Below are positions 3,462 through 52,200 of a stretch of DNA of 64,000 nt, piece by piece. This DNA comes from Eledone cirrhosa (Eukaryota). Location of the stretch: assembly GCA_964016885.1 (NCBI GenBank), contig OZ024741.1, positions 15,314,001 through 15,378,000 of the forward strand, given 5' to 3'. The notes below the pieces were generated by a model. That model saw nothing but the letters and a program-made list of their open reading frames with translations. It was not told the DNA's origin and ran no database searches. Position 1 is the stretch's first letter; each line of letters opens with the position of its first letter. Made by a program: the position numbers and the translations under genes.

Positions 3462-3504
3462 ACGCTGTACTAGTTTCAAGCTTATTAGCTATCGTCAGCA
3501 ACGT
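3462..3504 (-). ncRNA. Minimal hammerhead ribozyme (left arm)
   Basis: Reverse complement of 3667-3709. Confidence 0.7.
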
Positions 3505-19263: not shown

Positions 19264-19944
19264 ATATATATATATATATTCCAAAGCTAGAGGACAATGC
19301 CAAGTAGTGCATTACTTATGGTCACCTTCAGTATGAAAAGCAAATAGTTAAGTGGTGGTAGCAGTTTTGTAATATTATCCGGTCCCAGATAAAGCATGTT
19401 CCAGCAGATGTATTATCATATCTGTTCCAACTGACGCTACCATCCTACTTTAGACTTTCTTTAAACCTGTGGAATGATATTTGAGGAAGATTTGGTTGTT
19501 GTTTCTTGCATCTAGAACAACCATGTAGAGTATTTCTGAAAGAGGGATTGTAATTGAAAATGTTGGCGTTAATAGTGATGTTAGAGGTGGTGATGGTGGT
19601 GGTGGTTGTAGTAGTGGTGAGAGTGTGGTTGTAGTAGTGGTTGTGATGGTGGTGGTGGTTGTAGTAGTGGTGGTGATGGTGGTGGTGGTTGTAGTAGTGG
19701 TGAGAGTGTGGTTGTAGTAGTGGTCATGGGGGTGGTGGTGGTTGTAGTAGTGGTGAGAGTGTGGTTGTAGTAGTTGTGGTGATGGTGGTGGTGGTTGTAG
19801 TAGTGGTGGTGATGTTGGTGCTAGTGCATGCGGTTGTAGTAGTGGTGGTAGTTTTGATGTTGTTGATGGTGGTTTGTTGTAAGTGGTATCTGTGTGGTTA
19901 TAGAGGTAGTGATTGTTATGTTAGTGTTGGCATTGATGGTATTG

Positions 19945-22900
19945 GTGGTAGTTTTAATGTTGGTTAACTGACGTCAGTGGTAGTGGTGGTAGTAGTCGTA
20001 TTGGTGGTAGTGTTAATGTTGGTTGACTCACGTCAGTGGTAGTGGTGGTAGTGGTGGTATTGGTGGTAGTGTTAATGTTGGTTGTCTGACGTCAGTGGTA
20101 GTGGTGGTAGTGGTGGTATTGGTGGTAGTGTTAATGTTGGTTGTCTGACGTCAGTGGTAGTGGTGGTAGTAGTGGTATTGGTGGTAGTGTTAATGTTGGT
20201 TAACTGACGTCAGTGGTAGTGGTGGTAGTAGTCGTATTGGTGGTAGTGTTAATGTTGGTTGACTCACGTCAGTGGTAGTGGTGGTAGTGGTGGTATTGGT
20301 GGTAGTGTTAATGTTGGTTGTCTGACGTCAGTGGTAGTGGTGGTAGTGGTGGTATTGGTGGTAGTGTTAATGTTGGTTGTCTGACGTCAGTGGTAGTGGT
20401 GGTAGTAGTGGTATTGGTGATAGTGTTAATGTTGGTTGTCTGACGTCAGTGGTAGTGGTGGTAGTGGTGGTAGTAGTGGTATTGGTGGTAGTGTTAATGT
20501 TGGTTGACTGACGTCAGTGGTAGTGGTGGTAGTAGTGGTATTAGTGGTAGTGTTAATGTTGGTTAACTGACGTCAGTGGTAGTGGTGGTAGTGGTGGTAT
20601 TGGTGGTAGTGTTAATGTTGGTTGTCTGACGTCAGTGGTAGTGGTGGTAGTGGTGGTATTGGTGGTAGTGTTAATGTTGGTTGACTGACGTCAGTGGTAG
20701 TGGTGGTAGTAGTCGTATTGGTGGTAGTGTTAATGTTGGTTGACTCACGTCAGTGGTAGTGGTGGTAGTGGTGGTATTGGTGGTAGTGTTAATGTTGGTT
20801 GTCTGACGTCAGTGGTAGTGGTGGTAGTGGTGGTATTGGTGGTAGTGTTAATGTTGGTTGTCTGACGTCAGTGGTAGTGGTGGTAGTGGTGGTAGTAGTG
20901 GTATTGGTGGTAGTGTTAATGTTGGTTGACTGACGTCAGTGGTAGTGGTGGTATTGGTGGTAGTGTTAATGTTGGTTGTCTGACGTCAGTGGTAGTGGTG
21001 GTAGTAGTGGTATTGGTGGTAGTGTTAATGTTGGTTGACTGACGTCAGTGGTAGTGGTGGTAGTGGTGGTATTGGTGGTAGTGTTAATGCTGGTTGTCTG
21101 ACGTCAGTGGTAGTGGTGGTAGTGGTGGTATTGGTGGTAGTGTTAATGTTGGTTGTCTGACGTCAGTGGTAGTGGTGGTAGTAGTGGTATTGGTGGTAGT
21201 GTTAATGTTGGTTGTCTGACGTCAGTGGTAGTGGTGGTATTGGTGGTAGTGTTAATGTTGGTTGTCTGACGTCAGTGGTAGTGGTGGTAGTGGTGGTATT
21301 GGTGGTAGTGTTAATGTTGGTTGTCTGACGTCAGTGGTAGTGGTGGTAGTAGTGGTATTGGTGGTAGTGTTAATGTTGGTTGACTGACGTCAGTGGTAGT
21401 GGTGGTAGTGGTGGTATTGGTGGTAGTGTTAATGTTGGTTGTCTGACGTCAGTGGTAGTGGTGGTAGTGGTGGTATTGGTGGTAGTGTTAATGTTGGTTG
21501 TCTGACGTCAGTGGTAGTGGTGGTAGTAGTGGTATTGGTGGTAGTGTTAATGTTGGTGGTATTGGTGGTAGTGTTAATGTTGGTTGTCTGACGTCAGTGG
21601 TAGTGGTGGTAGTGGTGGTAGTAGTGGTATTGGTGGTAGTGTTAATGTTGGTTGACTGACGTCAGTGGTAGTGGTGGTAGTGGTGGTATTGGTGGTAGTG
21701 TTAATGTTGGTTGACTGACGTCAGTGGTAGTGGTGGTAGTGGTGGTATTGGTGGTAGTGTTAATGTTGGTTGTCTGACGTCAGTGGTAGTGGTGGTAGTG
21801 GTGGTAGTAGTGGTATTGGTGGTAGTGTTAATGTTGGTTGTCTGACGTCAGTGGTAGTGGTGGTAGTGGTGGTATTGGTGGTAGTGTTAATGTTGGTTGA
21901 CTGACGTCAGTGGTAGTGGTGGTAGTGGTGGTATTGGTGGTAGTGTTAATGTTGGTTGACTGACGTCAGTGGTAGTGGTGGTAGTGGTGGTATTGGAGGT
22001 AGTGTTAATGTTGGTTGACTGACGTCAGTGGTAGTGGTGGTAGTGGTGGTATTGGTGGTAGTGTTAATGTTGGTTGACTGACGTCAGTGGTAGTGGTGGT
22101 AGTGGTGGTATTGGTGGTAGTGTTAATGTTGGTTGTCTGACGTCAGTGGTAGTGGTGGTAGTGGTGGTATTGGTGGTAGTGTTAATGTTGGTTGTCTGAC
22201 GTCAGTGGTAGTGGTGGTAGTAGTGGTATTGGTGGTAGTGTTAATGTTGGTTGTCTGACGTCAGTGGTAGTGGTGGTAGTGGTGGTATTGGTGGTAGTGT
22301 TAATGTTGGTTGTCTGACGTCAGTGGTAGTGGTGGTAGTGGTGGTATTGGTGGTAGTGTTAATGTTGGTTGTCTGACGTCAGTGGTAGTGGTGGTAGTGG
22401 TGGTAGTGTTAATGTTGGTTGACTGACGTCAGTGGTAGTGGTGGTAGTGGTGGTAGTGTTAATGTTGGTTGACTGACGTCAGTGGTAGTGGTGGTAGTGG
22501 TGGTATTGGTGGTAGTGTTAATGTTGGTTGACTGACGTCAGTGGTAGTGGTGGTAGTGGTGGTATTGGTGGTAGTGTTAATGTTGGTTGTCTGACGTCAG
22601 TGGTAGTGGTGGTAGTGGTGGTAGTGTTAATGTTGGTTGACTGACGTCAGTGGTAGTGGTGGTAGTGGTGGTAGTGTTAATGTTGGTTGTCTGAAGTCAG
22701 TGGTAGTGGTGGTAGTGCTGGTATTGGTGGTAGTGTTAATGTTGGTTGTCTGACGTCAGTGGTAGTGTTGCTAGTGGTGGTATTGGTGGTAGTGTTAATG
22801 TTGGTTGTCTGACGTCAGTGGTAGTGGTGGTAGTGGTGGTATTGGTGGTAGTGTTAATGTTGGTTGACTGACGTCAGTGGTAGTGTTGCTAGTGGTGGTA

Positions 22901-25900
22901 TTGGTGGTAGTGTTAATGTTGGTTGTCTGACGTCAGTGGTAGTGGTGTTAGTGGTGGTATTGGTGGTAGTGTTAATGTTGGTGGTATTGGTGGTAGTGTT
23001 AATGTTGGTGGTATTGGTGGTAGTGTTAATGTTGGTTGACTGACGTCAGTGGTAGTGGTGTTAGTGGTGGTATTGGTGGTAGTGTTAATGTTGGTTGACT
23101 GACGTCAGTGGTAGTGGTGGTAGTGGTGGTATTGGTGGTAGTGTTAATGTTGGTTGTCTGACGTCAGTGGTAGTGGTGGTAGTGGTGGTAGTGTTAATGT
23201 TGGTTGTCTGACGTCAGTGGTAGTGGTGGTAGTGGTGGTAGTGTTAATGTTGGTTGTCTGACGTCAGTGGTAGTGGTGGTAGTGGTGGTATTGGTGGTAG
23301 TGTTAATGTTGGTTGACTGACGTCAGTGGTAGTGTTGCTAGTGGTGGTATTGGTGGTAGTGTTAATGTTGGTTGTCTGACGTCAGTGGTAGTGGTGTTAG
23401 TGGTGGTATTGGTGGTAGTGTTAATGTTGGTGGTATTGGTGGTAGTGTTAATGTTGGTGGTATTGGTGGTAGTGTTAATGTTGGTTGACTGACGTCAGTG
23501 GTAGTGGTGTTAGTGGTGGTATTGGTGGTAGTGTTAATGTTGGTTGACTGACGTCAGTGGTAGTGGTGGTAGTGGTGGTATTGGTGGTAGTGTTAATGTT
23601 GGTTGTCTGACGTCAGTGGTAGTGGTGGTAGTGGTGGTAGTGTTAATGTTGGTTGTCTGACGTCAGTGGTAGTGGTGGTAGTGGTGGTAGTGTTAATGTT
23701 GGTTGTCTGACGTCAGTGGTAGTGGTGGTAGTGGTGGTATTGGTGGTAGTGTTAATGTTGGTTGTCTGACGTCAGTGGTAGTGGTGGTAGTGGTGGTAGT
23801 GTTAATGTTGGTTGTCTGACGTCAGTGGTAGTGGTGGTAGTGGTGGTAGTGTTAATGTTGGTTGTCTGACGTCAGTGGTAGTGGTGGTAGTGGTGGTATT
23901 GGTGGTAGTGTTAATGTTGTTTGTCTGACGTCAGTGGTAGTGGTGGTATTGGTGGTATTGGTGGTAGTGTTAATGGTGTTTGTCTGACGTCAGTGGTAGT
24001 GGTGGTAGTGGTGGTAGTGGTGGTATTGGTGGTAGTGTTAATGTTGTTTGTCTGACGTCAGTGGTAGTGGTGGTAGTGGTGGCATTGGTGGTAGTGTTAA
24101 TGGTGTTTGTCTGACGTCAGTGGTAGTGGTGGTAGTGGTGGTAGTGGTGGTATTGGTGGTAGTGTTAATGTTGTTTGTCTGACGTCAGTGGTAGTGGTGG
24201 TAGTGGTGGTATTGGTGGTAGTGTTAATGGTGTTTGTCTGACGTCAGTGGTAGTGGTGGTAGTGGTGGTAGTGGTGGTATTGGTGGTAGTGTTAATGTTG
24301 GTTGTCTGACGTCAGTGGTAGTGGTGGTAGTGGTGGTATTGGTGGTAGTGTTAATGGTGTTTGTCTGACGTCAGTGGTAGTGGTGGTAGTGGTGGTATTG
24401 GTGGTAGTGTTAATGTTGGTTGTCTGACGTCAGTGGTAGTGGTGGTAGTGGTGGTAGTGTTAATGTTGGTTGACTGACGTCAGTGGTAGTGGTGCTAGTG
24501 GTGGTATTGGTGGTAGTGTTAATGTTGGTTGTCTGACGTCAGTGGTAGTGCTGGTATTGGTGGTAGTGTTAATGTTGGTTGTCTGACGTCAGTGGTAGTG
24601 GTGGTAGTGGTGGTATTGGTGGTAGTGTTAATGTTGGTTGACTGACGTCAGTGGTAGTGGTGGTAGTGGTGGTATTGGTGGTAGTGTTAATGTTGGTTGA
24701 CTGACGTCAGTGGTAGTGGTGGTAGTGGTGGTATTGGTGGTAGTGTTAATGTTGGTTGTCTGACGTCAGTGGTAGTGGTGGTAGTGGTGGTAGTGTTAAT
24801 GTTGGTTGACTGACGTCAGTGGTAGTGGTGCTAGTGGTGGTATTGGTGGTAGTGTTAATGTTGGTTGACTGACGTCAGTGGTAGTGGTGGTAGTGGTGGT
24901 ATTGGTGGTAGTGTTAATGTTGGTTGACTGACGTCAGTGGTAGTGGTGGTAGTGGTGGTATTGGTGGTAGTGTTAATGTTGGTTGTCTGACGTCAGTGGT
25001 AGTGGTGGTAGTGGTGGTTATGGTGTTAGTGTTAATGTTGGTTGACTGACGTCAGTGGTAGTGGTGGTAGTGGTGGTTATGGTGGTAGTGTTAATGTTGG
25101 TTGTCTGACGTCAGTGGTAGTGGTGGAAGTGGTGGTAGTGGTGATAGTGGTGGTAGTGTTAATGTTGGTTGTCTGACGTCAGTGGTAGTGGTGGTAGTGG
25201 TGGTAGTGTTAATGTTGGTTGTCTGATTTCAGTGGTAGTGGTGGTAGTGGTGGTAGTGTTAATGTTGGTTGACTGACGTCAGTGGTAGTGGTGGTAGTGG
25301 TGGTAGTGGTGGTAGTGTTAATGTTGGTTGTCTGATTTCAGTGGTAGTGGTGGTAGTGGTGGTAGTGTTAATGTTCGTTGACTGACGTCAGTGGTAGTGG
25401 TGGTAGTGGTGGTAGTGGTGGTAGTGTTAATGTTGGTTGTCTGATTTCAGTGGTAGTGGTGGTAGTGGTGGTAGTGTTAATGTTGGTTGTCTGACGTCAG
25501 TGGTAGTGGTGGTAGTGGTGGTATTGTTGGTAGTGTTAATGTTGGTTGTCTGACGTCAGTGGTAGTGGTGGAAGTGGTGGTAGTGGTGATAGTGGTGGTA
25601 GTGTTAATGTTGGTTGTCTAACGTCAGTGGTAGTGGTGGTAGTGTTGGTAGTGGTGGTAGTGGTGGTAGTGTTAATGTTGGTTGTCTGATTTCAGTGGTA
25701 GTGGTGGTAGTGGTGGTAGTGTTAATGTTGGTTGACTGACGTCAGTGGTAGTGGTGGTAGTGGTGGTAGTGGTGGTAGTGGTGGTAGTGTTAATGTTGGT
25801 TGTCTGATTTCAGTGGTAGTGGTGGTAGTGGTGGTAGTGTTAATATTGGTTGTCTGACGTCAGTGGTAGTGGTGGTAGTGGTGGTAGTGGTGGTAGTGGT

Positions 25901-26130
25901 GGTAGTGGTGGTGGTGTTAATGTTGGTTGTCTGACGTCAGTGGTAGTGGTGGTAGTGGTGGTAGTGGTGGTAGTGGTGGTAGTGTTAATGTTGGTTGTCT
26001 GATTTCAGTGGTAGTGGTGGTAGTGGTGGTAGTGTTAATGTTGGTTGACTGACGTCAGTGGTAGTGGTGGTAGTGGTGGTAGTGGTGGTAGTGTTAATGT
26101 TGGTTGTCTGATTTCAGTGGTAGTGGTGGT
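19945..26130. repeat. 59-bp minisatellite (about 105 copies; 50/59/68-bp variants) containing CTGACGTCAG
   Basis: Unit CTGACGTCAGTGGTAGTGGTGGTAGTGGTGGTATTGGTGGTAGTGTTAATGTTGGTTGW; length varies in 9-bp steps. Confidence 0.95.
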
Positions 26131-29641: not shown

Positions 29642-30106
29642 TAATAATAATAAATCCTAGAATACCAGTTTCGAATTCAGCTACAGATTTTTGCAGTCTG
29701 TTTACGTTTTCCATTTTTTTTGTGGGGTGGGTGGGTGATGAATTCCTTTTTCATTCGCCCTATAGGCTAGAAATAGCAGATATATTTCCTTCAAGCTACA
29801 TGTTACTCTATATATACACACTCATACAAATATGCGTAAATATTTATATGTGTGTGTATAATTGAAAAAGGGGGTAAAATTCCATACAAAGCAAAGATTA
29901 TAATTAAAAAGTGAAGGTTAAAAATGCACAGAAGTATATGTAAAGATATATTTTCCTTAATTTGACAGAATTAATCATTTTATAACAACAACAGACACGC
30001 AGACACAAACAACAATAACAACACACACAACAATAATAACACACACGGAGACAACAACAACACACATCAACAACAGCACACATCAACAACAACACACACA
30101 CATTCA

Positions 30107-32803
30107 ATGCCTCTCACCACCACCACAATCTTAACAAACACACAGACACAGAAAACAAGTAATTACAGTAGCACAGAAATCACAGAAATAAGGGAAAGTA
30201 ATAGGATTAAAAGGAGAAGGGAGACTAAGGACAAAGAAAATAACCAAGACGAACACACAGACACACAAAATAGGGTAGATAACAATAATGAGCCAGTGGA
30301 AAGAGACAGGAGTAATTATGAGAGACATAGAAACAACCATGAGGCTGTTGGTGGAAATAGAAATAGAAACAACACAACTAACAATAACAATAGCACTAGT
30401 ACACATAAAGCAGCAGCCTGGAACTCTACTTTTTATAATCCCTCCGATAAATCGTTCGACCTGCGACGAGTCCACGCCACGACTTTACCATTTAACAAAC
30501 GCACGCAATTGCCGTCGCAGGTCGATGAACAAACAGAAGCACAATTTAGTATAGCTAGATCCGAACTTAGAAATATTATAGAACAGTATAGCAAGAAGCA
30601 TAATAGAATGGAGGCCCAGCAACTGGGAGAAAAATCTGCAAATGGCTTGCGTAAGCTCATGCAGCGCTCGCGTAATGGAGAGATAGCATGCTTTCCAACA
30701 GACAAGTCTGGCAGAATGTCGGTTGACAGCCTGCCAAACTACATCCAGGCAATGCAACCCCACATCACTAACACAAGAGAGGTAACACCACAGGAGCATG
30801 AGGATAGAGAAAAAGCCCTCAATGCCCATATGGTGATGTGGACGAATATAATGCAGCCCAACAAAAGGACTGCCAACAACTTCCAGGCCTGGAACAATGA
30901 CGTGCCGGCGTTGTATGGGCTTCGAAAAGACCATAAAACGGGCAGTGACCCTGTCGCGGGACCACCAACACGGCCAGTCTGTGGAGCTAACATTGCTAGT
31001 AACTACAGACTGTCCTACTTCCTCTCCCTGATCATACGCCCCATCATTGAAATGTCCCCAGATGTATGTGACAGCACGGAGGACCTCCTCAGCAGAATCG
31101 GCGAGAGTAACCGATCTAGGGACCTAACAAACTGCATAATAGGCAGTATGGATGTTGTGTCCCTGTATCCATCTATTGACGTGGATTTTGCTGTGGAGAA
31201 ATGCGTAGAAATGATCAGTGAGAGCAATGTTGTGTTCCGTGGGATTGATACCAGTGAGCTGGGACTCCTACTTAAACTTACCTATAGTAATAATTACCTA
31301 GACACATATGACCTTAGCAACCTGTGCCCTACAAGACCAGCAAGAGGCAGACCACCTACCATTACCTCAATGGCCAAGAAAACCCACACAGATAGATGGA
31401 ACGGGTGGACCAGAGCCATACGGACACCCGAAAACCACGATGAACTGAAGAAAATGGTTGCACATGCGGTAGGGGCCAGCATAAAACTAACCCTTAAGGA
31501 ACATATGTTCAAATTTAATGGAAAAACATATGCCCAAGAGGAAGGAGCAGCCATTGGTGTTAGCATTGCAGGCGACATAGCTAACTTATTCATGGTATGG
31601 TGGGACAGTAGACTTAAACTTAAACTTAAAGAACAATTAGAAGACCCCTTAACCCTGATAATGTACTCCCGCTACGTTGATGATATAAACATCGTAGTTA
31701 AGACACCCCCACTAGAGAACAGTCAGGAACTAGAGAAAAACACAATGGAAAGCATCCAGCAAATAGCTAACTCCATCCACCAGAGCATTAGAGTTACTAT
31801 AGACTACCCAAGTAAACACCCCAACCATCGATTACCTGTACTAGACACAGAGCTCTGGTTAGATACCATTAATAACAAAAAACAAATCCTCCATTCCCAT
31901 TATGCCAAACCCATGACTTCCAAACATCTGATCCACCGAAACTCGGCCGTTTCGGACCATACCAAAATCAACATACTGATTGCGGATTTGGTACGGGTGA
32001 TGAGAAACGTGTCCCGCATGTGCAACCCCGAAGAACTAGAGAGACACATACAACACTTCATCCACCGTATGCAGTTCTCTGGCTACAATCAGAGAGATAA
32101 AATCAGAGTGTATAGAGGAGTCAGAACCAAATGGCAAAAAATGGTAAATAATGACATAAATGGGACCTGCCCCTTGTATAGGAGCAAATTTTGGAATAGA
32201 ATAGAAAGAACTAGGAACAAGGCTAATAGAATAAACTCATGGTATGATAGCAATAAATACCAGAGTGTAATGTTCATCGATACAACCCTTAGAGGTGAAT
32301 TAGCTTACAAATTTAGAAGGGCCCTAGATAAACATAAACTCAATATTAAGATAGTAGAAAGACCAGGTACCTCCGTAAAAACACTTATTAGCAAGACATA
32401 CCCTTTTCAAAGACCCTCATGTATAGATAAGAAATGTATAACCTGTAAAATAAGCCCCCATATTAACTGTAAAACTAGAAATGTAGTGTATAGCATAAGA
32501 TGTACTGAAGGACAATGTAGCGACAAAAATATAGTGTACATAGGTGAGACAGCTCGTAGTGTAGGGGAACGGATAAATGAACACTGGCGAGACCTTCAAG
32601 ATTGTAAAGAATCATCTGTACTCTACCAACATGCTAAAATAGAACACAAGGGTAAATTAGAGAACATAGAAATAAAAATAGAATCTACACACAGAAAAGA
32701 CGCAATGTTTAGACAAATCACAGAGGCAATAAACATAAAAGAATTACAACCAAAATTAAATAGAAAATATGAGTGGAACAGCAACATCACAACTTACAAT
32801 TAA
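30107..32803 (+). CDS. Penelope-like element polyprotein: reverse transcriptase plus C-terminal GIY-YIG endonuclease
   Basis: PTDKSG (DKG motif), PALYGLRKDHK, RPV, SMDVVSLYPSI, QEEGAAIG..IANLFM, YSRYVDD, LPVLD, YAKP; Cys-rich linker CIDKKCITC; NVVYSIRC..C..YIGET..R..EH..H..EH..E..LN; 898 aa with no stops. Confidence 0.96.
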   Translation: MPLTTTTILTNTQTQKTSNYSSTEITEIRESNRIKRRRETKDKENNQDEHTDTQNRVDNNNEPVERDRSNYERHRNNHEAVGGNRNRNNTTNNNNSTSTHKAAAWNSTFYNPSDKSFDLRRVHATTLPFNKRTQLPSQVDEQTEAQFSIARSELRNIIEQYSKKHNRMEAQQLGEKSANGLRKLMQRSRNGEIACFPTDKSGRMSVDSLPNYIQAMQPHITNTREVTPQEHEDREKALNAHMVMWTNIMQPNKRTANNFQAWNNDVPALYGLRKDHKTGSDPVAGPPTRPVCGANIASNYRLSYFLSLIIRPIIEMSPDVCDSTEDLLSRIGESNRSRDLTNCIIGSMDVVSLYPSIDVDFAVEKCVEMISESNVVFRGIDTSELGLLLKLTYSNNYLDTYDLSNLCPTRPARGRPPTITSMAKKTHTDRWNGWTRAIRTPENHDELKKMVAHAVGASIKLTLKEHMFKFNGKTYAQEEGAAIGVSIAGDIANLFMVWWDSRLKLKLKEQLEDPLTLIMYSRYVDDINIVVKTPPLENSQELEKNTMESIQQIANSIHQSIRVTIDYPSKHPNHRLPVLDTELWLDTINNKKQILHSHYAKPMTSKHLIHRNSAVSDHTKINILIADLVRVMRNVSRMCNPEELERHIQHFIHRMQFSGYNQRDKIRVYRGVRTKWQKMVNNDINGTCPLYRSKFWNRIERTRNKANRINSWYDSNKYQSVMFIDTTLRGELAYKFRRALDKHKLNIKIVERPGTSVKTLISKTYPFQRPSCIDKKCITCKISPHINCKTRNVVYSIRCTEGQCSDKNIVYIGETARSVGERINEHWRDLQDCKESSVLYQHAKIEHKGKLENIEIKIESTHRKDAMFRQITEAINIKELQPKLNRKYEWNSNITTYN

Positions 32804-32899
32804 GGACAAAATGAATACACACACACACATAGAACAAACAACCAACCAGTAACATGTAAATAAACAAATAAATAAATGAACATAAACACACACAGACAC

Positions 32900-32957
32900 C
32901 CGGATGTGGCGCATGCGCAGACTGAGCACACAACACACACACAGAAACAAAATGGCG
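32900..32957 (+). promoter_or_regulatory. Putative pseudo-LTR promoter motifs (ETS-like, NRF1-like, YY1-like)
   Basis: CCGGATGT 32900, GCGCATGCGC 32909, CAAAATGGCG 32948; CGCATGCGCA retained at 17238 in the diverged copy. Confidence 0.4.
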
Positions 32958-33004
32958 TAGGACAGAACAAAGGAGAGGCACAAAAATAAAGAAAGGAATC
33001 CCCA

Positions 33005-33047
33005 GTCACTGAAGAGGTCACAGAGTGTGTGACGAAAGAACTATGAC
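33005..33047 (+). ncRNA. Minimal hammerhead ribozyme in the PLE pseudo-LTR
   Basis: GTCA-CTGAAGA-G-GTCACA(gagtg)TGTGAC-GAAA-G-AA-CTA|TGAC; predicted cleavage after 33043. Confidence 0.85.
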
Positions 33048-33496
33048 AATATATAAACAACTATCTGGTTGAGGAACCAACCAACCAACCAGAAATTTAT
33101 AAATTTATAAATTTATTATAAATTTATTATAATAAATTGAAGTGAAAGCAACTGGTGCGTGTGTTTCTTATTGACAACATGACCCCCCCCCCCCCAAAGT
33201 ATAACAATATCGGTTTCAACACACGATTTCAGATAAAGAATCTTGCTAAACAAATTCAGAAACGGAATTTTATAACTGTTGCATTAAATATAACTGGCTT
33301 CAATTGTTATAACAATCTTATCAAATATCATAAATTAAATATTTAAACAATGTATTTTTATGTATTCTGTTAGCAGTTCAAATACATGTTAGTTTACATA
33401 CATATAAAGATATACATATGCATCTGTTTGTATGTGGCGGCACGCGACTTGTTATTATATGGTATATTTAAATTAGGATCAATGAAAGTAAATAAT

Positions 33497-35190: not shown

Positions 35191-36950
35191 TAAACCAAAT
35201 ATTCACATTTGTCCAAACACATACAGAGTATTCTGTTCGGAACTCAAGATGATATTAGTGATCCATATACATATAATAAATAAATAATAAAAAACTTGTT
35301 AAACTTCAATTATAACTTTACTAACAATGTTTTTATTATTTATTTATTATATGTATATGGATCACTAATATCGTCTTGAGTTCCGAACAGAATACTCTGT
35401 ATGTGTTTGGACAAATGTGAATATCTGGTTTAATAACAGGCTTCTAGCTACATTTATATGTACTCTAGATACTTAAGGACATTCTAGTGTTATAATTGTT
35501 AAATATTTTCTAAATTATGTAACGATTATAATTTTTTAATTTAATTAAATTCGGATTACCTTCGGGTCGATGAAAATCTTAAGTTTTCTCTTTCTCATGT
35601 TTGCAGACACTTTAAATATGATACTATACTACTATAGAGATCCTTTAAAAAAATGTTCTTGTATTTTAAATTATATAGCTTAAATATTTGGCACTTATAT
35701 GATCGCAAACAATTTACTTATTTATTTTGAATCTAGTTCGTTTCCTTACGATTCATGAATTTTTTATAGTATTACATGATTTTATAGTATTACATGATCC
35801 TAAGATACAATAATTGATCTAAAACCATAATTGTAACAATATTAACAGTAACTTATTTATTCTATTGTATTATATTGTGTTATGCTTTAGGGCATTCTAA
35901 TTGTTAATTTTAAATTTTTTAGGTTATAACTAATTATTTTCTAAATTATATAGTGAGAATTATTTTAGTATGGGAAAATAATATAAGATAATATAATTTA
36001 ATATGGTTTATCTTCGTGTGGATGAAAATACTAAGTTTGAAAACACTTTAAATATGATTTTATAAATTAAATATGTTAGTATACTTTAATATTAATATAG
36101 ACATTTATAAACTTTTATAGCCTGAAATATTATACCGTTAGTTTAATCCATTATTCTGAACTAACATAAGGAATTTGAAATTTAACGGTCAGCCGAATAC
36201 GTTTGGATATATATGGTGTATAAATAATTGTTAGTATATTTCTTATTAATTGAGGACTCGAAATTAAACCCTCATATAATTTACACCGAGATATATTTAA
36301 TATTTAAATAGATGGATACTTCTAGATAATTCAAAGATTCGAGTTTACTCTTTCACAAAGCTATGCCCAAATGTATATTTATCTATGATTTATACTATAA
36401 AAATTATTCCCCTTTTGTCTCTTTATCCTTGATCAATTCTCTTTTGCTTTCTATACTTCTAGTAACTATATTTTTTCCTCATCTGTTTCTCCCTGTCTTT
36501 CTTCTTTCTTTCTTCTTTCTTCAATAATTTAAATTATTTGAATCTCTAACAGTTATGTAAATTGCTATTATGTATTTTTAAGCTTTCTCACACGCACCCT
36601 CTGTATTATATGTAAGTTTTTTCATGTCTCAATCTTAAGGTATATAAATATTGAGTCTTGTCATATCATATTCACTACCATGACTGAATCTTAACCATCT
36701 ACTATGTCAGGGTATGTCATGCATCATCTTATTTTATTTTATTTTATTTTATCTGATGAGGACGTACTGTTGAAGATAGCTCAGTACCTCTGAAATATGT
36801 ATAATAAAATATACTTGATCACACGAATGTCTATTTTTGTTAATATTTTGAATTAATATTAATAACTCCGGAAAACCGTGACCGTTGAGTGCTTCCAATC
36901 TATTGTAAAACTAATTCTTTGATTTATTCATTGAACCTTGTTTAACCTTT
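35191..36950 (+). mobile_element. AT-rich 1.76-kb element with inverted 5' end and 3' HHR
   Basis: 35191-35293 inverted to 35330-35432; HHR-like motif about 150-200 bp before the terminal (TA)n; no ORF. Confidence 0.55.
36748..36806 (+). ncRNA. Hammerhead-like motif
   Basis: TTTAT-CTGATGA-GGACGTACTG(ttgaagatagct)CAGTACCTCT-GAAATATGTA-TAATAA. Confidence 0.5.
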
Positions 36951-36952
36951 AA

Positions 36953-36992
<40 letters not shown>

Positions 36993-36997
<5 letters not shown>

Positions 36998-37733
36998 GAT
37001 AAGCAGAACAAGTAAAATTCAATCAATTTTTTAAAAATACATTAAAAAATATAATATAAATATTTACCTCTCCTAGTGGCCCTTACTGATCAGTTTCGCT
37101 TTGTAAAACCTCATAAATCCGATGGATTCTGCTTATCTTAATATTAAAGTTCTGGTGTATCAAATTAATACCATTGAACAACCTTGAATCATAGACAACC
37201 TATGTATTTCTGGGGGTACCTAGTATCCCTGGACATATTAACTTCAATCTCTTTCTCCGTCCGTTGAGAGCAATTCTGTTGCTCTATTTAGCTGCTATTT
37301 TTTTAGTAGTAATTGTAGACAGCAAGTCTTTGATTTTCCCGCTTTTACTTCGGTCCAGTTTACATACGGGTCACTTTTACGACCTTTCAGACCTTTATTT
37401 GCTGGCAGGAGGTTATATATTTTGTCGTTCCTGGGACGTTTAGCCCTAGGAAGAGAAAATGCTTTTCTGATGAGCTTTGGTTTTCCATCATAAATCCATC
37501 GGATTTATGAGGTTTTACAAAGCGAAACTGATCAGTAAGGGCCACTAGGAGAGGTAAATATTTATATTATATTTTTTAATGTATTTTTAAAAAATTGATT
37601 GAATTTTACTTGTTCTGCCTATCTTAATATTAAAGTTCTGGTGTATCAAATTAATACCATTGAACAACCTTGAATCATAGACAACCTATGTATTTCTGGG
37701 GGTACCTAGTATCCCTGGACATATTAACTTCAA

Positions 37734-37736
<3 letters not shown>
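36993..37736 (+). mobile_element. Retrozyme-like 486-bp partial tandem unit with inverted 5' segment, within (TA)n
   Basis: Direct repeats 37127-37250 / 37613-37736; 36993-37126 is the reverse complement of about 37495-37630; single HHR. Confidence 0.85.
37461..37542 (+). ncRNA. Hammerhead ribozyme with extended stem II
   Basis: CTGATGA-GCTTTG..TCATAAATCC(atc)GGATTTATGA..CAAAGC-GAAAC-TGATCA-GTA|AGGGC; stem I imperfect. Confidence 0.8.
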
Positions 37737-37769
<33 letters not shown>

Positions 37770-37770
<1 letters not shown>

Positions 37771-38548
37771 CCATACTTAGGAAATAAAATCAATTCTACC
37801 GCTTCTGTAGACGATGAAATGGTAAATAAGAACGCCAAGGATAGTGAAGCCTTTGGAAAGATGCGAGCAAGGTTGTGGAATGAAAGATGATTGAGTTTGA
37901 AAATGAAAATCTCATTTTACCGTATTGTTGTCGTCTCAACATTGCTGTATGGGTCTGACTAGTAGACACCATACAGAAAATACATTACACACCTAGATAC
38001 AACACAAGAGATATTCTTAGAAATATCTCTGGTTTCGCATGGAAGAACAAAGTCTTTAATGAACAGTTGCTTAGTAAATGTGATATACAAAAGATAGAGG
38101 CTTTCTTAAAATCTTAATTAAGATGGGCTGGCCATGTTGCATGAATGATGAAAGACAGCCTAAAATTGTCACTTATGACCAGCTTCAAGTGAGAATGCGA
38201 AACGTAGGAAGACCTCTTCTTAGATACAAGGGTAAACTGAAGAATAATATCAAATTTATTGGAATACAACCATCAGAATTTGAAGAATGTGCTCCTGACC
38301 CTAATAAGTGGAGGAGAATCTGTCAAAATTGCACCAGGAGCCATGTGAAGACAAGGGTTGGTCACCTAGGTGATCTAATGCAAGGTGAAAGGAATGTAGT
38401 TTCTGTTCAACTATTTTTGTATGAAAGTTGTGGTCTGGTTTGCAAAAGCAGGACAGGTTTAGTGTCTCACAGTAGACATAATCACTAAAACGAGGAAAGT
38501 AACATCTTCTGGCCTTCATGTGCCTTACACGACGAAAGTGTCCATCAT
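37770..38548 (+). mobile_element. RTE-clade LINE 3' fragment (degenerate)
   Basis: PYLG..DDE..AFGKMRARLW..LSLKMKISFYRIVVVSTLLYGS; LRWAGHV, RQPK, RNVGRPLLRYK, terminal zinc-finger-like ESCGLVCKSRTGLVSHSRH; stops and frameshifts. Confidence 0.88.
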
Positions 38549-43287: not shown

Positions 43288-46200
43288 CACCTACACAACA
43301 CAGCTATAAGTATTTGTACCTAGTTCTCAGCCCCTACACAACACAGCTATAAGTATTTGTACCTAGTTCTCAGTACCTACACAACACACCTATAAGTATG
43401 TGTACCTAGTTCTCAGTATCTACACAACACACCTATAAGTATTTGTACCTAGTTCTCAGCCCCTACACAACACACCTATAAGTATGTGTACCTAGTTCTC
43501 AGTATCTACACAACACACCTATAAGTATTTGTACCTAGTTCTCAGCCCCTACACAACACACCTATAAGTATGTGTACCTAGTTCTCAGTATCTACACAAC
43601 ACACCTATAAGTATTTGTACCTAGTTCTCAGCCCCTACACAACACACCTATAAGTATGTGTACCTAGTTCTCAGTATCTACACCACACACCTATAAGTAT
43701 GTGTACCTAGTTCTCAGTACCTACACAACACACCTATAAGTATGTGTACCTAGTTCTCAGCCCCTACACAACACAGCTATAAGTATGTGTACCTAGTTCT
43801 CAGCTACTACACAACACACCAACAAGTATGTGTACCTAGTTCTCAGCCCCTACACAACACACCTATAAGTAGGTCTACCTAGTTATCAGCACCTACACAA
43901 CACAGCTATAAGTATGTGTTCCTAGCTCTCAGCCCCTACACAACACACCTATAAGTATGTGTACCTAGTTCTCTGTATCTACACAGCACACCTATAAGTA
44001 TGTGTACCTAGTTCTCACCCCCTACACAACACAGCTATAAGTATGTGTACCAAGTTCTCTGCCACTACACAACACAGCTATAAGTATGTGTACATAGTTC
44101 TCTGTATCTACACAACGCACCTATAATATGTGTACCTAGTTCTCAGCCACTACACAGCACACCTATAAGTATGTCTACCTAGTTCTCAGCCCCTACACAA
44201 CACACCTATAAGTATGTGTACCTAGTTCTCAGCCCCTACACAACACACCTATAAGTATGTGTACCTTGTTCTCAGTATCTACACAACACACCTATAAGTA
44301 TGTCTACCTAGTTCTCAGCTCCTACACAACACAGCTATAATTATGTGTACCTTGTTATCAGTCCTTACACAACACAGATATAAGTATGTGTACTTAGTTC
44401 TCAGCCACTACAAAACACACCTATAAGTATGTGTACCTAGTTCTCAGTATCTACACAACACAGCTATAAGTATGTGTACCTAGTTCTCAGCCACTACACA
44501 ACACACCTATAAGTATGTGTACCTAGTTCTCAGCTACTACACAACACACCTATAAGTATGTGTACCTCGTTCTCAGTATCTACACAACACACATATAAGT
44601 AAGTGTACCTAGTTCTCAGCCACTACACAACACACCTATAAGTATGTGTACCTAGTTCTCAGCCCCTACACAACACACCTATAAGTATGTGTACCTAGTT
44701 CTCAGTATCTACACAACACACCTATAAGTATGTGTATCTAGTTCTCAGTATCTACACGACACACCTATAAGTATGTCTACCTAGTTCTCAGCTCCTACAC
44801 GACACAGCTATAATTATGTGTACCTAGTTATCAGTCCTTACACAACACAGCTATAAGTATGTGTACTTAGTTCTCAGCCACTACACAACACACGTATAAG
44901 TATGTGTACCTAGTTCTCAGCCCCTACACAACACAGCTATAAGTATGTGTACCTAGTTCTCAGCCCCTACACAACTCACCTATAAGTATGCGTACCTAGT
45001 TCTCAACCCTACACAACACACCTATAAGTATGTCTACCTAGTTCTCAGCTCCTACACGACACAGCTATAATTATGTGTACCTAGTTATCAGTCCTTACAC
45101 AACACACGTATAAGTATGTGTACCTAGTTCTCAGCCCCTACACAACACAGCTATAAGTATGTGTACCTAGTTCTCAGCCCCTACACAACTCACCTATAAG
45201 TATGCGTACCTAGTTCTCAACCCTACACAACACACCTATAAGTATGTATACCTAGTTCTCAGTATCTACACAACACACCTATAAGTATGTGTACCTAGTT
45301 CTCAGTATCTACACAACAAAGCTATAAGTATGTGTACCTAGTTCTCAGCCACTACACAACACACCTATAAGTATGTGTACCTAGTTCTCAGCCACTACAC
45401 AACACACCTATAAGTATGTGTACCTCGTTCTCAGTATCTACACAACACACATATAAGTAAGTGTACCTAGTTCTCAGCCACTACACAACACACCTATAAG
45501 TATGTGTACCTAGTTCTCAGCCCCTACACAACACACCTATAAGTATGTGTACCTAGTTCTCAGTATCTACACAACACACCTATAAGTATGTGTATCTAGT
45601 TCTCAGCCCCTACACAACACACCTATAAGTATGTGTACCTAGTTCTCAGTATCTACACAACACACCTATAAGTATGTGAACCTAGTTCTCAGTATCTACA
45701 CAACACACCTATAAGTATGTGTACCTAGTTCTCAGTATCTACACAGCACACCTATAAGTATGTCTACCTAGGTCTCAGATCCTACACAACACACCTATAA
45801 GTATGTGTAAATAGTTCTGAGCCCATACACAACACACATACAAGTATGTCTACCTAGGTCTCAGCCCCTACACAACACAGCTATAAGTATGTGAACCTAG
45901 TTCTCACTATCTACACAGCACACCTATAAGTATGTGTACCTAGTTCTCAGCCCCTACACAACACACCTATAAGTATGTGTACCTTGTTCTCAGTATCTAC
46001 ACAACACACCTATAAGTATGTCTACCTAGTTCTCAGCTCCTACACAACACAGGTATAATTATGTGTACCTAGTTATCAGCCCTTACACAACACAGCTATA
46101 AGTATGTGTACTTAGTTCTCAGCCACTACACAAAACACGTATAAGTATGTGTACCTAGTTCTCAGTATCTACACAACACAGCTATAAGTATGTGTACCTA

Positions 46201-49200
46201 GTTCTCAGCCACTACAAAACACACCTATAAGTATGTGTACCTAGATTCTCAGTCACCGCACAACACACCTATAAGTATGTGTACCTAGTTCTCAGTATCT
46301 ACACAACACATCTATAAGTATGTGTAGCTAGTTCTCAGTATCTACACAACACACCTATAAGTATGCGTATGTAGTTCTCAGCCACTACACAACACACCTA
46401 TAAGTATGTGTACCTAGTTCTCAGCATCTACACAACACACCTATAAGTAAGTGTACCTAGTTCTCAGCCCCTACACAACACACCTATAAGTATGTGTACC
46501 TAGTTCTCAACCCCTACACAACACACCTATAGGTATGTGTACCTAGTTTTCAGCCCCTACAGAACACACCTATAAGTATGTGTACCTAGTTCTCAGCCCC
46601 TACACAACACAGCTATAAGTATGTGTACCTAGTTCTCAGCCACTACACAACACACCTATAAGTATATGTACCTAGTTCTCAGCCCCTACACAACACACCT
46701 ATAAGTATGTGTACCTAGTTCTCAGTATCTACACAACACACCTTTAAGTTTGTGTACCTAGCTCTCAGTATCTACACAACACACCTATAAGTATGTGTAC
46801 CTAGTTCTCAGCATCTACACAACACACCTATAAGTAAGTGTACCTAGTTCTCAGCCCCTACACAACACACCTATAAGTATGTGTACCTAGTTCTCAGCCC
46901 CTACAAAACACACCTGTAAGTATGTGTACCTAGTTCTGAGCACCTACACAACACACCTATAAGTATCTGTACCTAGTTCTCAGTCCCTACACAACACACC
47001 TATAAGTATGTGTACCTAGTTCTCAGTATCTACACAACACACCTACAAGTATGTGTACCTAGTTCTCAGTATCTACACAACTTACCTATAAGTATGTGTA
47101 CCTACTTCTCAGTCCCTACACAACACACCTATAAGTATGTTTACCTAGTTCTCTCTATCTACACAACACACCCATAAGTATGTGTACCTAGTTCTCAGTA
47201 TCTACACAATACACCTATAAGTATGTGTACCTAGTTCTCAGCCCTACACAACACAGCTGTAAGTATGTGTACCTAGTTCTCAGCCCCTACACAAAACACC
47301 TATAAGTATCTGTACCTAGTTCTCAGCCCCTACACAACACACCTAAAATTATCTGTACCTAGTTCTCAGTCACTACACAACACACCTATAAATATGTGTA
47401 CCTAGCTCTCAGTATCTACACAACACAGCTATTAGTATGTGTACCTAGTTCTCAGCCCCTACACAACGCACCTATAATTATGTGTACCTAGTTCTCAGTA
47501 TTTACACAACATATCTACAAGTATGTCTACCTAGGACTCAGCCCCTACACAACACACCTATAAGTATGTGTACCTAGTTCTCAGCCCCTACACAACACAC
47601 ATACAAGTATGTCTACCTAGGTATCAGCCTCTACACAACACACCTATAAGTATGTGTACCTTGTTCTCAGCCCCTACACAACAGACCTATAAGTATGTGT
47701 CCCTAGTTCTCAGTATCTACACAACACAACTATTAGTATGTGTACCTAGTTCTCAGCCCCTACACAACACCCCTATAAGTATGTGTACCTAGTTCTCAGC
47801 CACTACACAACTCAGCTATAAGTATGTGTACCTAGTTATCAACCCTTACACAACACACCTATAAGTATGTGTACCTAGTTCTCAGTATCTACACAACACA
47901 CTTATAAGTATGTGTACCTAGTTCTCAGCCACTACACAACACACCTATAATTATGTGTACCTAGTTCTCAGTATCTACACAACTCACCTAAAGTATGTGT
48001 ACCTCGTTCTCAGTATCTACACAACACACCTATAAGTATGTGTACTTAGTTCTCAGCTCCTACACAACACACCTATAAGTATGTGTACCTAGTTCTCAGC
48101 CCCTACACAACACACATATAAGTATGTGTACCTAGTTTTCAGTATCTACACAACACACCTATAAGTATGTGTACCTAGTTCTCTGTATCTACACAACACA
48201 CCTATAAATATGTGTACCTAGTTCTCAGCCCCTACACAACACACATATAAGTATGTGTACCTAGTTCTCAGTATCTACACAACACACCTATAAGTATGTG
48301 TACCTAGTTCTCAGTATCTACACAACACACCTATAAATATGTGTACCTAGTTCTCAGTTTCTACACAACACAGCTATAATTATGTGTACCTAGTTATCAG
48401 CCCTTACACAACACAGCTATAAGTATGTGTACTTAGTTCTCAGCCACTACACAACACACGTATAAGTATGTGTACCTAGTTCTCAGTATCTACACAACAC
48501 AGCTATAAGTATGTGTACCTAGTTCTCAGCCACTACAAAACACACCTATAAGTATGTGTACCTAGATTCTCAGTCACCGCACAACACACCTATAAGTATG
48601 TGTACCTAGTTCTCAGTATCTACACAATACATCTATAAGTATGTGTACCTAGTTCTCAGTATCTACACAACACACCTATAAGTATGCGTATGTAGTTCTC
48701 AGCCACTACACAACACACCTATAAGTATGTGTACCTAGTTCTCGGCATCTACACAACACACCTATAAGTAAGTGTACCTAGTTCTCAGCCCCTACACAAC
48801 ACACCTATAAGTATGTGTACCTAGTTCTCAACCCCTACACAACACACCTATAGGTATGTGTACCTAGTTTTCAGCCCCTACAGAACACACCTATAAGTAT
48901 GTGTACCTAGTTCTCAGCCCCTACACAACACAGCTATAAGTATGTGTACCTAGTTCTCAGCCACTACACAACACACCTATAAGTATGTGTACCTAGTTCT
49001 CAGCCCCTACACAACACACCTATAAGTATGTGTACCTAGTTCTCAGTATCTACACAACACACCTTTAAGTTTGTGTACCTAGCTCTCAGTATCTACACAA
49101 CACACCTATAAGTATGTGTACCTAGTTCTCAGCATCTACACAACACACCTATAAGTATGTGTACCTAGTTCTCAGCCCCTACACAACACACCTGTAAGTA

Positions 49201-52200
49201 AGTGTACCTAGTTCTGAGCACCTACACAACACACCTATAAGTATCTGTACCTAGTTCTCAGTCTCTACACAACACACCTATAAGTATGTGTACCTAGTTC
49301 TCAGTATCTACACAACACACCTACAAGTATGTGTACCTAGTTCTCAGTATCTACACAACTTACCTATAAGTATGTGTACCTACTTCTCAGTCCCTACACA
49401 ACACACCTATAATTATGTTTACCTAGTTCTCTCTATCTACACAACACACCCATAAGTATGTGTACCTAGTTCTCAGTATCTACACAATACACCTATAAGT
49501 ATGTGTACCTAGTTCTCAGCCCCTACACAACACACCTATAAGTATGTGTACCTAGTTCTCAGCCCTACACAACACAGCTGTAAGTATGTGTACCTAGTTC
49601 TCAGCCCCTACACAAAACACCTATAAGTATCTGTACCTAGTTCTCAGCCCCTACACAACACACCTATAATTATCTGTACCTAGTTCTCAGTCACTACACA
49701 ACACACCTATAAATATGTGTACCTAGCTCTCAGTATCTACACAACACAGCTATTAGTATGTGTACCTAGTTCTCAGCCCCTACACAACGCACCTATAATT
49801 ATGTGTACCTAGTTCTCAGTATTTACACAACATATCTACAAGTATGTCTACCTAGGTCTCAGCCCCTACACAACACACCTATAAGTATGTGTACCTAGTT
49901 CTCAGCCCCTACACAACACACCTACAAGTATGTCTACCTAGGTATCAGCCCCTACACAACACACCTATAAGTATGTGTACCTTGTTCTCAGCCCCTACAC
50001 AACAGACCTATAAGTATGTGTCCCTAGTTCTCAGTATCTACACAACACAACTATTAGTATGTGTACCTAGTTCTCAGCCCCTACACAACACCCCTATAAG
50101 TATGTGTACCTAGTTCTCAGCCACTACACAACTCAGCTATAAGTATGTGTACCTAGTTATCAACCCTTACACAACACACCTATAAGTATGTGTACCTAGT
50201 TCTCAGTATCTACACAACACACTTATAAGTATGTGTACCTAGTTCTCAGCCACTACACAGCACACCTATAATTATGTGTACCTAGTTCTCAGTATCTACA
50301 CAACTCACCTAAAGTATGTGTACCTCGTTCTCAGTATCTACACAACACACCTATAAGTATGTGTACTTAGTTCTCAGCTCCTACACAACACACCTATAAG
50401 TATGTGTACCTAGTTCTCAGCCCCTACACAACACACATATAAGTATGTGTACCTAGTTCTCAGTATCTACACAACACACCTATAAGTATGTGTACCTAGT
50501 TCTCTGTATCTACACAACACACCTTTAAATATGTGTACCTAGTTCTCAGCCCCTACACAACACACATATAAGTATGTGTACCTAGTTCTCAGTATCTACA
50601 CAACACACCTATAAGTATGTGTACCTAGTTCTCAGTATCTACACAACACACCTATAAATATGTGTACCTAGTTCTCAGTTTCTACACAACACACCTATAA
50701 GTATGTGTACCTAGTTATCAGTATCTACACAACACACCTATAAGTATGTGTACCAAGCTCTCAGTATCTACACAACACATATATAAGTATGTGTACCTAG
50801 TTCTCAGTACCTACACAACACACCTATAAGTACGTGTACCTAGTTCTCAGCCCCTACACAACACACCTATAAGTATGTGTACCTAGTTCTCAGCCCCTAC
50901 ACAACACAGCTATAAGTATGTGTACCTAGTTCTCAGCCCCTACACAACACATATATAAGTATGTGTACCTAGTTCTCAGTATCTACACAACACACCTATA
51001 AGTATCTGTACCTAGTTCTCAGCCCCTACACAACACACCTATAATTATCTGTACCTAGTTCTCAGTCACTGCACAACACACCTATAAATATGTGTACCTA
51101 GCTCTCAGTATCTACACAACACAGCTATAAGTATGTGTACCTAGTTCTCAGCCCCTACACAACGCACCTATAATTATGTGTACCTAGTTCTCAGTATTTA
51201 CACAACATATCTACAAGTATGTCTACCTAGGTCTCAGCCCCTACACAACACACCTATAAGTATGTGTACCTAGTTCTCAGCCCCTACACAACACACCTAC
51301 AAGTATGTCTACCTAGGTATCAGCCCCTACACAACACACCTATAAGTATGTGTACCTTGTTCTCAGCCCCTACACAACAGACCTATAAGTATGTGTCCCT
51401 AGTTCTCAGTATCTACACAACACAACTATTAGTATGTGTACCTAGTTCTCAGCCGCTACACAACACCCCTATAAGTATGTGTACCTAGTTCTCAGCCACT
51501 ACACAACTCAGCTATAAGTATGTGTACCTAGTTATCAACCCTTACACAACACACCTATAAGTATGTGTACCTAGTTCTCAGTATCTACACAACACACTTA
51601 TAAGTATGTGTACCTAGTTCTCAGCTACTACACAACACACCTATAATTATGTGTACCTAGTTCTCAGTATCTACACAACTCACCTAAAGTATGTGTACCT
51701 CGTTCTCAGTATCTACACAACACACCTATAAGTATGTGTACTTAGTTCTCAGCTCCTACACAACACACCTATAAGTATGTGTACCTAGTTCTCAGCCCCT
51801 ACACAACACACATATAAGTATGTGTACCTAGTTCTCAGTATCTACACAACACACCTATAAGTATGTGTACCTAGTTCTCTGTATCTACACAACACACCTA
51901 TAAATATGTGTACCTAGTTCTCAGCCCCTACACAACACACATATAAGTATGTGTACCTAGTTCTCAGTATCTACACAACACACCTATAAGTATGTGTACC
52001 TAGTTCTCAGCCCCTACACAACACATATATAAGTATGTGTACCTAGTTCTCAGTATCTACACAACACACCTATATTATGTGTACCTAGTTCTCAGCCACT
52101 ACACAACACACCTATAAGTATGTGTACCTAGTTCTCACCCCCTACACAACACAGCTATAAGTATGTGTACCAAGTTCTCTGCCACTACACAACACAGCTA

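Follow-up and report, generated by a model that had tools for sequence, protein, structure and literature searches.

A hammerhead retrozyme family in Eledone cirrhosa with two fixed insertion ends, probably mobilised by a Penelope-type enzyme

The window analyzed here, a 64,000-nucleotide stretch of Eledone cirrhosa contig OZ024741.1 (positions 15,314,001 to 15,378,000 of the forward strand), holds an insertion of a small repeated unit whose sequence places it among the non-LTR retrozymes: it carries a hammerhead motif, it is short and non-coding, it occurs in tandem and it is strongly self-paired. The element is real and of an ordinary kind, a new retrozyme family whose insertions are informative about mechanism. 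The ends of its copies lie not at the ribozyme cleavage site but at two fixed internal positions, 104 nt from each other, here called A and B. We consider it probable that the family is inserted by a reverse transcriptase (RT)-endonuclease of the Penelope-like element (PLE) type, which would start two cDNAs on uncleaved RNA at a cut (TA)n tract. Retrozymes are already known, and their mobilization by PLEs has so far been proposed from co-occurrence and pseudo-LTR homology. The present family adds evidence at the level of individual insertions.

Re-measurement of the window locus upheld the architecture described in an earlier note on this DNA, with small corrections. Two direct repeats of 124 nt (37127-37250 and 37613-37736) lie 486 nt apart, differ at one position (T at 37133, C at 37619) and enclose a single hammerhead. 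The unit has a GC content of 35%, and the longest ATG-initiated ORF in six frames of the repeated unit encodes 34 amino acids. Numbering the unit 37251-37736 as q1-q486 puts the predicted cleavage at q287/288, site A at q380 (37630) and site B at q484-486 (37734-37736). Unstranded (TA)n tracts flank the insertion at 36953-36994 and 37736-37768, and the left one doubles as the 3' flanking sequence of a hammerhead element (35883-36953) that is older and unrelated; it was into this tract that the retrozyme inserted. The forward arm (37127-37736, plus strand) is 610 nt or 1.26 units long, and its outer end is site B; this arm is likely a B-primed cDNA. An inverted arm on the minus strand (36993-37128), likely an A-primed cDNA, copies 37493-37628, comprising the ribozyme 3' half, an AU hairpin and site A, which forms its outer end. 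This inverted copy had been given as 134 bp. The full match between 36991-37128 and 37493-37630 is 138 nt with a single mismatch, which becomes 136 nt without two TA bases and 134 nt without the 2 nt shared with the direct repeat, at 37127-37128, where the forward and inverted arms overlap.

The first direct repeat (37127-37250, plus strand) is the tail region of a preceding, 5'-truncated unit, in which site B is read through at 37248-37250. The second (37613-37736, plus strand) contains the 104-nt tail that runs from A to B. Each end follows a predicted hairpin on the plus strand: a long AU hairpin with about 10 unpaired nucleotides (37546-37630) ends at A, and a hairpin at 37687-37723 with about 12 unpaired nucleotides (37687-37736 in all) ends at B. 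Because the locus holds only one ribozyme, it is a product of insertion and not a source of circles, and it would release no monomer; tandem loci elsewhere in the family, with at least two ribozymes, could do so.

The hammerhead motif is of type I and spans 37461-37542 on the plus strand, with stem I, the core, stem II and stem III. Its core, CUGAUGA (37467-37473), is followed by a 50-nt stem II (37474-37523) and by GAAA (37524-37527). The palindromic stem III (37527-37536) consists of two pairs and a loop that is palindromic in three spellings, and cleavage is predicted between GUA and A at 37537/37538. At 37465, in stem I, the window copy has a U in place of the C of most copies, giving a G-U pair. 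No Rfam hammerhead model matched at the gathering score or at E<=10, probably because stem II is so long. The fold is supported by covariation rather than by Rfam. Across 14 natural copies, one of which is a junction and not a whole ribozyme, the core nucleotides are conserved, 93% of cells are paired and 8 of 24 pairs change on both sides, a count that relatedness among the sequences can inflate. None of 500 shuffles reached the observed number of cells changed on both sides, which also lay far above slid controls. Self-cleavage is a prediction from sequence, and in the accessible text of a 2026 survey eight of nine predicted Xenopus retrozymes failed to cleave in vitro (10.64898/2026.07.22.740005). 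Contig stops at 37541 were considered as a mark of cleavage and not accepted.

Folding the monomer, a check proposed in the earlier note, indicated strong self-pairing (z = -6.0 for the circular form over 60 shuffles, -4.7 for the linear form). A predicted anti-ribozyme strand at 37341-37352 (plus strand) pairs with 37529-37542, covering stem III and the cleavage site. This pairing recurs in the linear and circular folds and in the RNAalifold consensus of 20 diverged copies. Over its 11 bp, 97% of cells are paired and three of the 11 pairs change on both sides, with one change tracking a loop change in a sister family; the pair-count measure alone is modest (19/500). According to this model the covarying helix would lock the ribozyme, which would make read-through easier to understand whether the template was a circle or a multimer. 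Blocking of the ribozyme is likewise predicted in plant retrozymes and viroids, and in only some mussel circles, in the portions available of PMC7229834.

The family is large. In the 3.0-Gb genome there are 734 exact matches to the ribozyme 3' motif, 456 to A-end/(TA) junctions and at least 148 to B-end junctions (16 and 132 in two spellings), with no matches for reversed control patterns. An initial look gave 1928 candidates, and 39 that were scored yielded 99 matches at 92-100% identity. Given these genome-wide matches, the repeat architecture is not due to chance. Unit length is 485-486 nt throughout the family, subfamilies range from 99% down to about 75% identity, and four contig sets cover the unit, in which subfamily variants and each of the two ends can be seen. 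A sister family, about 75% identical, has a unit of 524-527 nt, ends at the same two sites and gives 326 motif matches; where its stem II begins, at the base, there is a mismatch of the U-U or U-C kind. It is represented by loci L256-L285 and L217 and is also present in contigs of a second organism. Copies are scattered in (TA)n tracts and range from 5'-truncated fractions up to 20-mers. Permuted and tandem genomic copies, which the earlier note had suggested looking for, are therefore present, with copies running across both the unit junction and the cleavage site, and the idea of a retrozyme-like monomer is borne out. A search of the literature on Penelope twin priming, retrozyme ends and PLE mechanism, in which subscription papers were sparsely covered, returned no description of the family and no argument for the A/B rule set out below.

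For detailed study, a sample unbiased by length was drawn in contig order: 89 A-end matches among the first 100 on the list. Six were dropped (three segmental duplicates, one gap and two ends internal to a single locus), which left 83 A-ended loci, whose arms run from 53 nt to 9.8 kb. The B-ended sample comprised the first 30 of 132 loci, six of them shared with the A-ended set.

Site A is the major 3' end of the family and site B the second, lying 93 and 197 nt downstream of the predicted cleavage site, respectively. In the predicted folds both follow a long hairpin after roughly 10-12 unpaired AU-rich bases, and both finish in 2-4 bases that match (AT)n. The pattern resembles the Penelope "tail", although the tail is 104 nt here against 30-40 nt in described PLEs. 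By comparison, 5' ends are variable. They are enriched at q281-320 (41 of 190 arms, a total that, like the 149 elements, the junction overlaps, the 21 measured pairs and the haplotype comparisons below, may hold a few repeats through imperfect de-duplication), an AT-rich stretch with microhomology to (TA)n. Only 3 of the 190 arms start at q286-288, and we rejected RT run-off at the cleavage site for this reason. The spread of B-arm 5' ends round the unit similarly discounts an L1-like rule in which the B arm would stop at site A. Candidate target-site duplications of 10-47 nt are visible in 16 of 149 elements and are obscured by the (TA)n context. In the accessible parts of two retrozyme papers (PMC7229834; 10.64898/2026.07.22.740005), insertion ends are not mapped.

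What RNA was copied? Of 82 chained arms from the A-ended loci, 70 pass the cleavage site and 20 pass two ribozymes. A linear self-cleaved monomer would cap A arms at 93 nt and so cannot be the template, which must be either circular or an uncleaved multimer. To this extent the earlier proposal of a circular or multimeric template holds; the circle that it favored is not singled out, since multimers fit the read-through equally well. Rolling-circle copying of a monomeric circular RNA, the reading of the earlier note and of the published retrozyme model, has in our judgment close to an even chance. Besides the read-through, it accounts for the single haplotype across the units of an insertion and suits a strongly self-paired unit with a predicted lock helix, and related animal retrozymes form abundant circles according to the available text of PMC7229834. 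Several observations pull the other way: arrays exist that would yield linear multimers, arm lengths show no clear pile-up at 486 nt, and PAc used unprocessed RNA, as far as the available text of PMC11167929 describes. The arrays themselves also carry recurring variants that a monomer circle would not be expected to produce. Linked variants recur in units 9, 15 and 19 of a 20-unit array (G000:C1:382.892-382.902 Mb; L184, L252), an 8-unit array likewise has a recurring pattern, and smaller arrays show a variant period of 2 or 3, with recurring private-variant periods of 2-6 units overall. These patterns point to local duplication or multimeric templates, and we therefore did not accept long arrays as proof of rolling-circle copying. 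At one other locus (L095, G000:C1:30.666-30.668 Mb) an A-ended copy is followed by two q125-380 pieces, each with its own (TA)n, which represent repeated insertion or local duplication.

The second candidate template is an uncleaved linear multimer transcribed from tandem loci, in which case circles have no role and the ribozyme is a mostly passive remnant of a PLE pseudo-LTR. We regard this as a serious contender that nevertheless falls somewhat short of even. It fits the arms that span two ribozymes, the arrays of up to 20 units and the many 5' ends in the 60 nt spanning and following the cleavage site, with a cluster at q281-320 that looks as if some templates began there; in vitro, PAc insertion was unaffected by ribozyme mutants, according to the accessible portion of PMC11167929. 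However, that cluster coincides with the AT-rich stretch of (TA)n microhomology, and few of its arms start at the cleavage position itself. Moreover, over 25% divergence the core, the stems and the lock helix persist through compensatory changes, which implies that RNA processing is under selection.

The inverted copies provide a further view of how insertions arise. A head-to-head partner arm is present at 27 of the 83 A-ended loci (24 detected by script and 3 by eye). The partner ends at B in 23 of these, ends elsewhere or is cut short in 4, and never ends at A. Such pairing has a probability of 1e-7 if A and B are equally likely and of 1e-15 at the rate seen in direct copies, among which the frequency of A is estimated at 0.78. 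Direct copies end more often at A, so A/A would be the usual pair if the two ends were chosen independently. In the B-ended sample, 17 of 30 loci have an A partner, one is cut, the remaining 12 are direct and B/B pairs are absent, although that absence by itself is weak (P = 0.013). The sister family has 4 inverted copies among 23 loci, three of them clean A/B pairs and one stopping 11 nt short of B. We conclude that the inverted piece at the window locus, previously described as an inverted leader, is likely a second cDNA, separately primed from a second fixed site.

The arms of a pair also appear to share an origin. Across 10 young inversions, the two arms show no differences at common polymorphic sites against 10.9 expected; 30 pairs of tandem units show one common-allele difference against 56.6 expected; and overall divergence is 0.64% within elements and 1.98% between them. 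A single sequence type thus supplied both arms, in the simplest case one RNA, although the shared haplotype could also reflect one master source at a time, or conversion. Overlaps at the junctions are mostly 0-6 nt, some at palindromes. Some second arms are very short, with B arms of 4-6 nt at four loci (L110, L120, L155 and L261) and an A arm of 15 nt at another (L243).

These short arms bear on a bolder version of the preferred reading, in which every insertion is two-armed: a PLE dimer would copy one locked circular 485-nt RNA from both fixed sites simultaneously, with A always used by one target end and B by the other, and "direct" copies would be those with a vanishing second arm. We put this forward as possible though doubtful. 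If true, it would explain the inverted repeats and one-sided tail of PLEs and would be direct evidence that PLEs mobilize ribozyme circles.

An inverted arm could instead form when a single cDNA, or an antisense RNA, folds back or primes itself, and self-priming has been proposed for Penelope inversions (PMC3846280, in the part available). The A arm does lie within the B arm in 11 of 21 measured pairs, the pattern of the window locus, and some junctions are palindromic. In the other 10 pairs, however, neither arm contains the other, and several share no sequence at all (L102, L112, L167 and L189), so that in those pairs one arm is not a fold-back copy of the other. About half of the measured pairs are therefore at odds with fold-back, and palindromic junctions are equally needed for annealing of two same-sense cDNAs. 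We judge this explanation unlikely.

Least probable of all, and very improbable in our estimate, is that the unit is the terminal repeat of a long coding PLE known only from 5'-truncated copies: all end features are PLE-like and a neighboring non-coding hammerhead element, at least 1.1 kb long, is a possible end of this sort, but arms in the A-ended sample that reach q1 all continue in register into q486 of the previous unit and no ORF is entered at any of the 83 A-ended, 30 B-ended or 23 sister-family loci, which means that the unit does not form a coding element's end. The earlier note had named this as one outcome that would overturn its proposal, and no copy examined enters a PLE. PLE ORFs do occur beside some copies, set apart by (TA)n and with their own ends.

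The insertions nevertheless bear the marks of PLE activity, including a head-to-head inverted, 5'-truncated copy with a tail on one side. In the portions available of PMC8557442 and PMC3846280, inverted 5'-truncated copies, a one-end tail and (TA)n targets are hallmarks of PLEs, the restriction of the tail to just one end being described qualitatively. The available text of PMC11167929 reports that both strands are cut and extended by a purified anole PLE protein, with synthesis beginning at two sites inside the RNA, which define an optional tail; uncleaved RNA was used, and the PAc start site in vitro did not differ between strands.

The source of the enzyme would lie outside the unit, which contains no ORF for RT and GIY-YIG domains. 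The earlier suggestion that the unit serves as template for the RT of a PLE in the same window was not supported. That PLE (29975-33270) has an ORF at 29975-32803 with an open RT plus a GIY-YIG-like domain at the C terminus, and a minimal hammerhead at 33009. Its 60 scored copies are 96-100% identical in protein, many with open frames. We rejected it as RT donor because neither the window copy nor any of 30 copies has DNA similarity to the unit. This PLE ends at two 3' sites of its own, 61 nt from each other within (TA)n, and its inversions comprise five short/long and two long/long cases (L071, L081). Strict A/B pairing is therefore not universal. A wider search among 30 GIY-YIG loci of several families gave no blastn match to the unit at E 0.01. 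A second PLE family beside some copies was dismissed as partner, given the intervening (TA)n and different ends, and the 3' region of locus L315, which shares just three short words by eye, was not accepted as a partner end.

The window contains other elements of related kinds. Immediately to the left, at 35297-36953, is the second non-coding hammerhead element, at least 1.1 kb long, with a ribozyme core at 36753, a long stem II, an inverted arm and a separation of about 94 nt between two ends of its own; a first look gave about 1900 candidates in the genome. Four extended loci of this element contained no ORF and no similarity to the retrozyme, and we rejected it as the retrozyme's parent. 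Paired hammerhead cores lie at 3498/3673, 5439/5446, 15961/16027 and 34842/34856, and single cores at 936, 15518, 17322 and 18625. These cores, several of them head-to-head, are likely truncated PLE ends of other families. Minisatellites occupy 43290-61032 (43 bp x 413), 19922-26130 (59 bp x 107), 11160-13215 (42 bp x 49) and 1230-2435 (45 bp x 27). The decayed sequence at 37800-38500 resembles, by eye, the 3' part of an RTE-type LINE, and Pfam gave no match for 38084-38485.

Taken together, our preferred reading of two cDNAs inserted by a PLE-type enzyme would run as follows. Loci with at least two units would be transcribed, and the ribozyme would cut some transcripts to monomers, which may be circularized, while the lock would keep much of the RNA uncut. 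A PLE protein would bind the hairpin-tail region and its RT-endonuclease would break both strands within a (TA)n tract; one target end would prime at A while its counterpart primed at B, probably with a single RNA molecule as template. Both cDNAs would then extend 5'-ward over variable lengths and be joined head-to-head by microhomology; alternatively, one would be so short that the copy looks direct. Some multimers may grow locally at a later stage. At the window locus, the cDNAs would measure 610 nt (B) and 136 nt (A). The A/B rule, together with arms that are not nested and that share a haplotype, makes a clear-cut prediction for testing a PLE in vitro on a 486-nt RNA, and hundreds of short, young, countable insertions bear on the origin of the inverted repeats and one-sided tail of PLEs.

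Among known systems, as described in the accessible parts of the papers cited here, the closest are the animal non-LTR retrozymes (PMC7229834; 10.64898/2026.07.22.740005). They share the non-coding, AT-rich tandem unit, the type I hammerhead, a short stem III with a palindromic loop, strong self-pairing, dispersal as anything from fractions to multimers, and co-occurrence with PLEs. Our unit of 485-486 nt (524-527 nt in the sister family) is longer than the 170-400 nt of northern-tested animal retrozymes and falls within the 51-972 range of the 2026 survey (10.64898/2026.07.22.740005), and it differs further in its 50-nt stem II, its predicted blocked ribozyme and in being known from genomic copies alone. 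In that survey 24 of 57 Xenopus retrozyme families have pseudo-LTR homology to a coding PLE. With EN+ PLEs (PMC11167929, PMC8557442, PMC3846280) the family shares fixed internal 3' ends, an optional tail, 5' truncation, head-to-head inverted copies, (TA)n targets and a ribozyme upstream of the ends; unlike them, it has no ORF, its tail is longer and it shows no homology to the coding families sampled. Chlamys elements of the MRC1 type (PMC8557442) are also non-coding PLE dependants with pseudo-LTRs and head-to-tail multimers, although they mostly lack canonical hammerheads and have a 3' end like that of their autonomous partner, for which we found no counterpart. Plant LTR retrozymes and hammerhead viroids (PMC7229834) have in common with our family a small circle-like RNA and a complementary strand that blocks the ribozyme, but the plant elements have a type III hammerhead where ours is type I, and the LTR pair and 4-bp duplication are absent here. 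Nor does the family have their fixed boundaries, its terminal redundancy ranging from none to many units. Viroids differ in turn, as this family has hundreds of genomic copies and is retrotransposed, with no sign of RNA-RNA replication. In LINE-1 twin priming, both target ends prime cDNA and a 5' inversion results; the position of the second site varies, and close to it the first cDNA comes to a stop. In the retrozyme, by contrast, both sites are fixed and the lengths of the two arms are independent.
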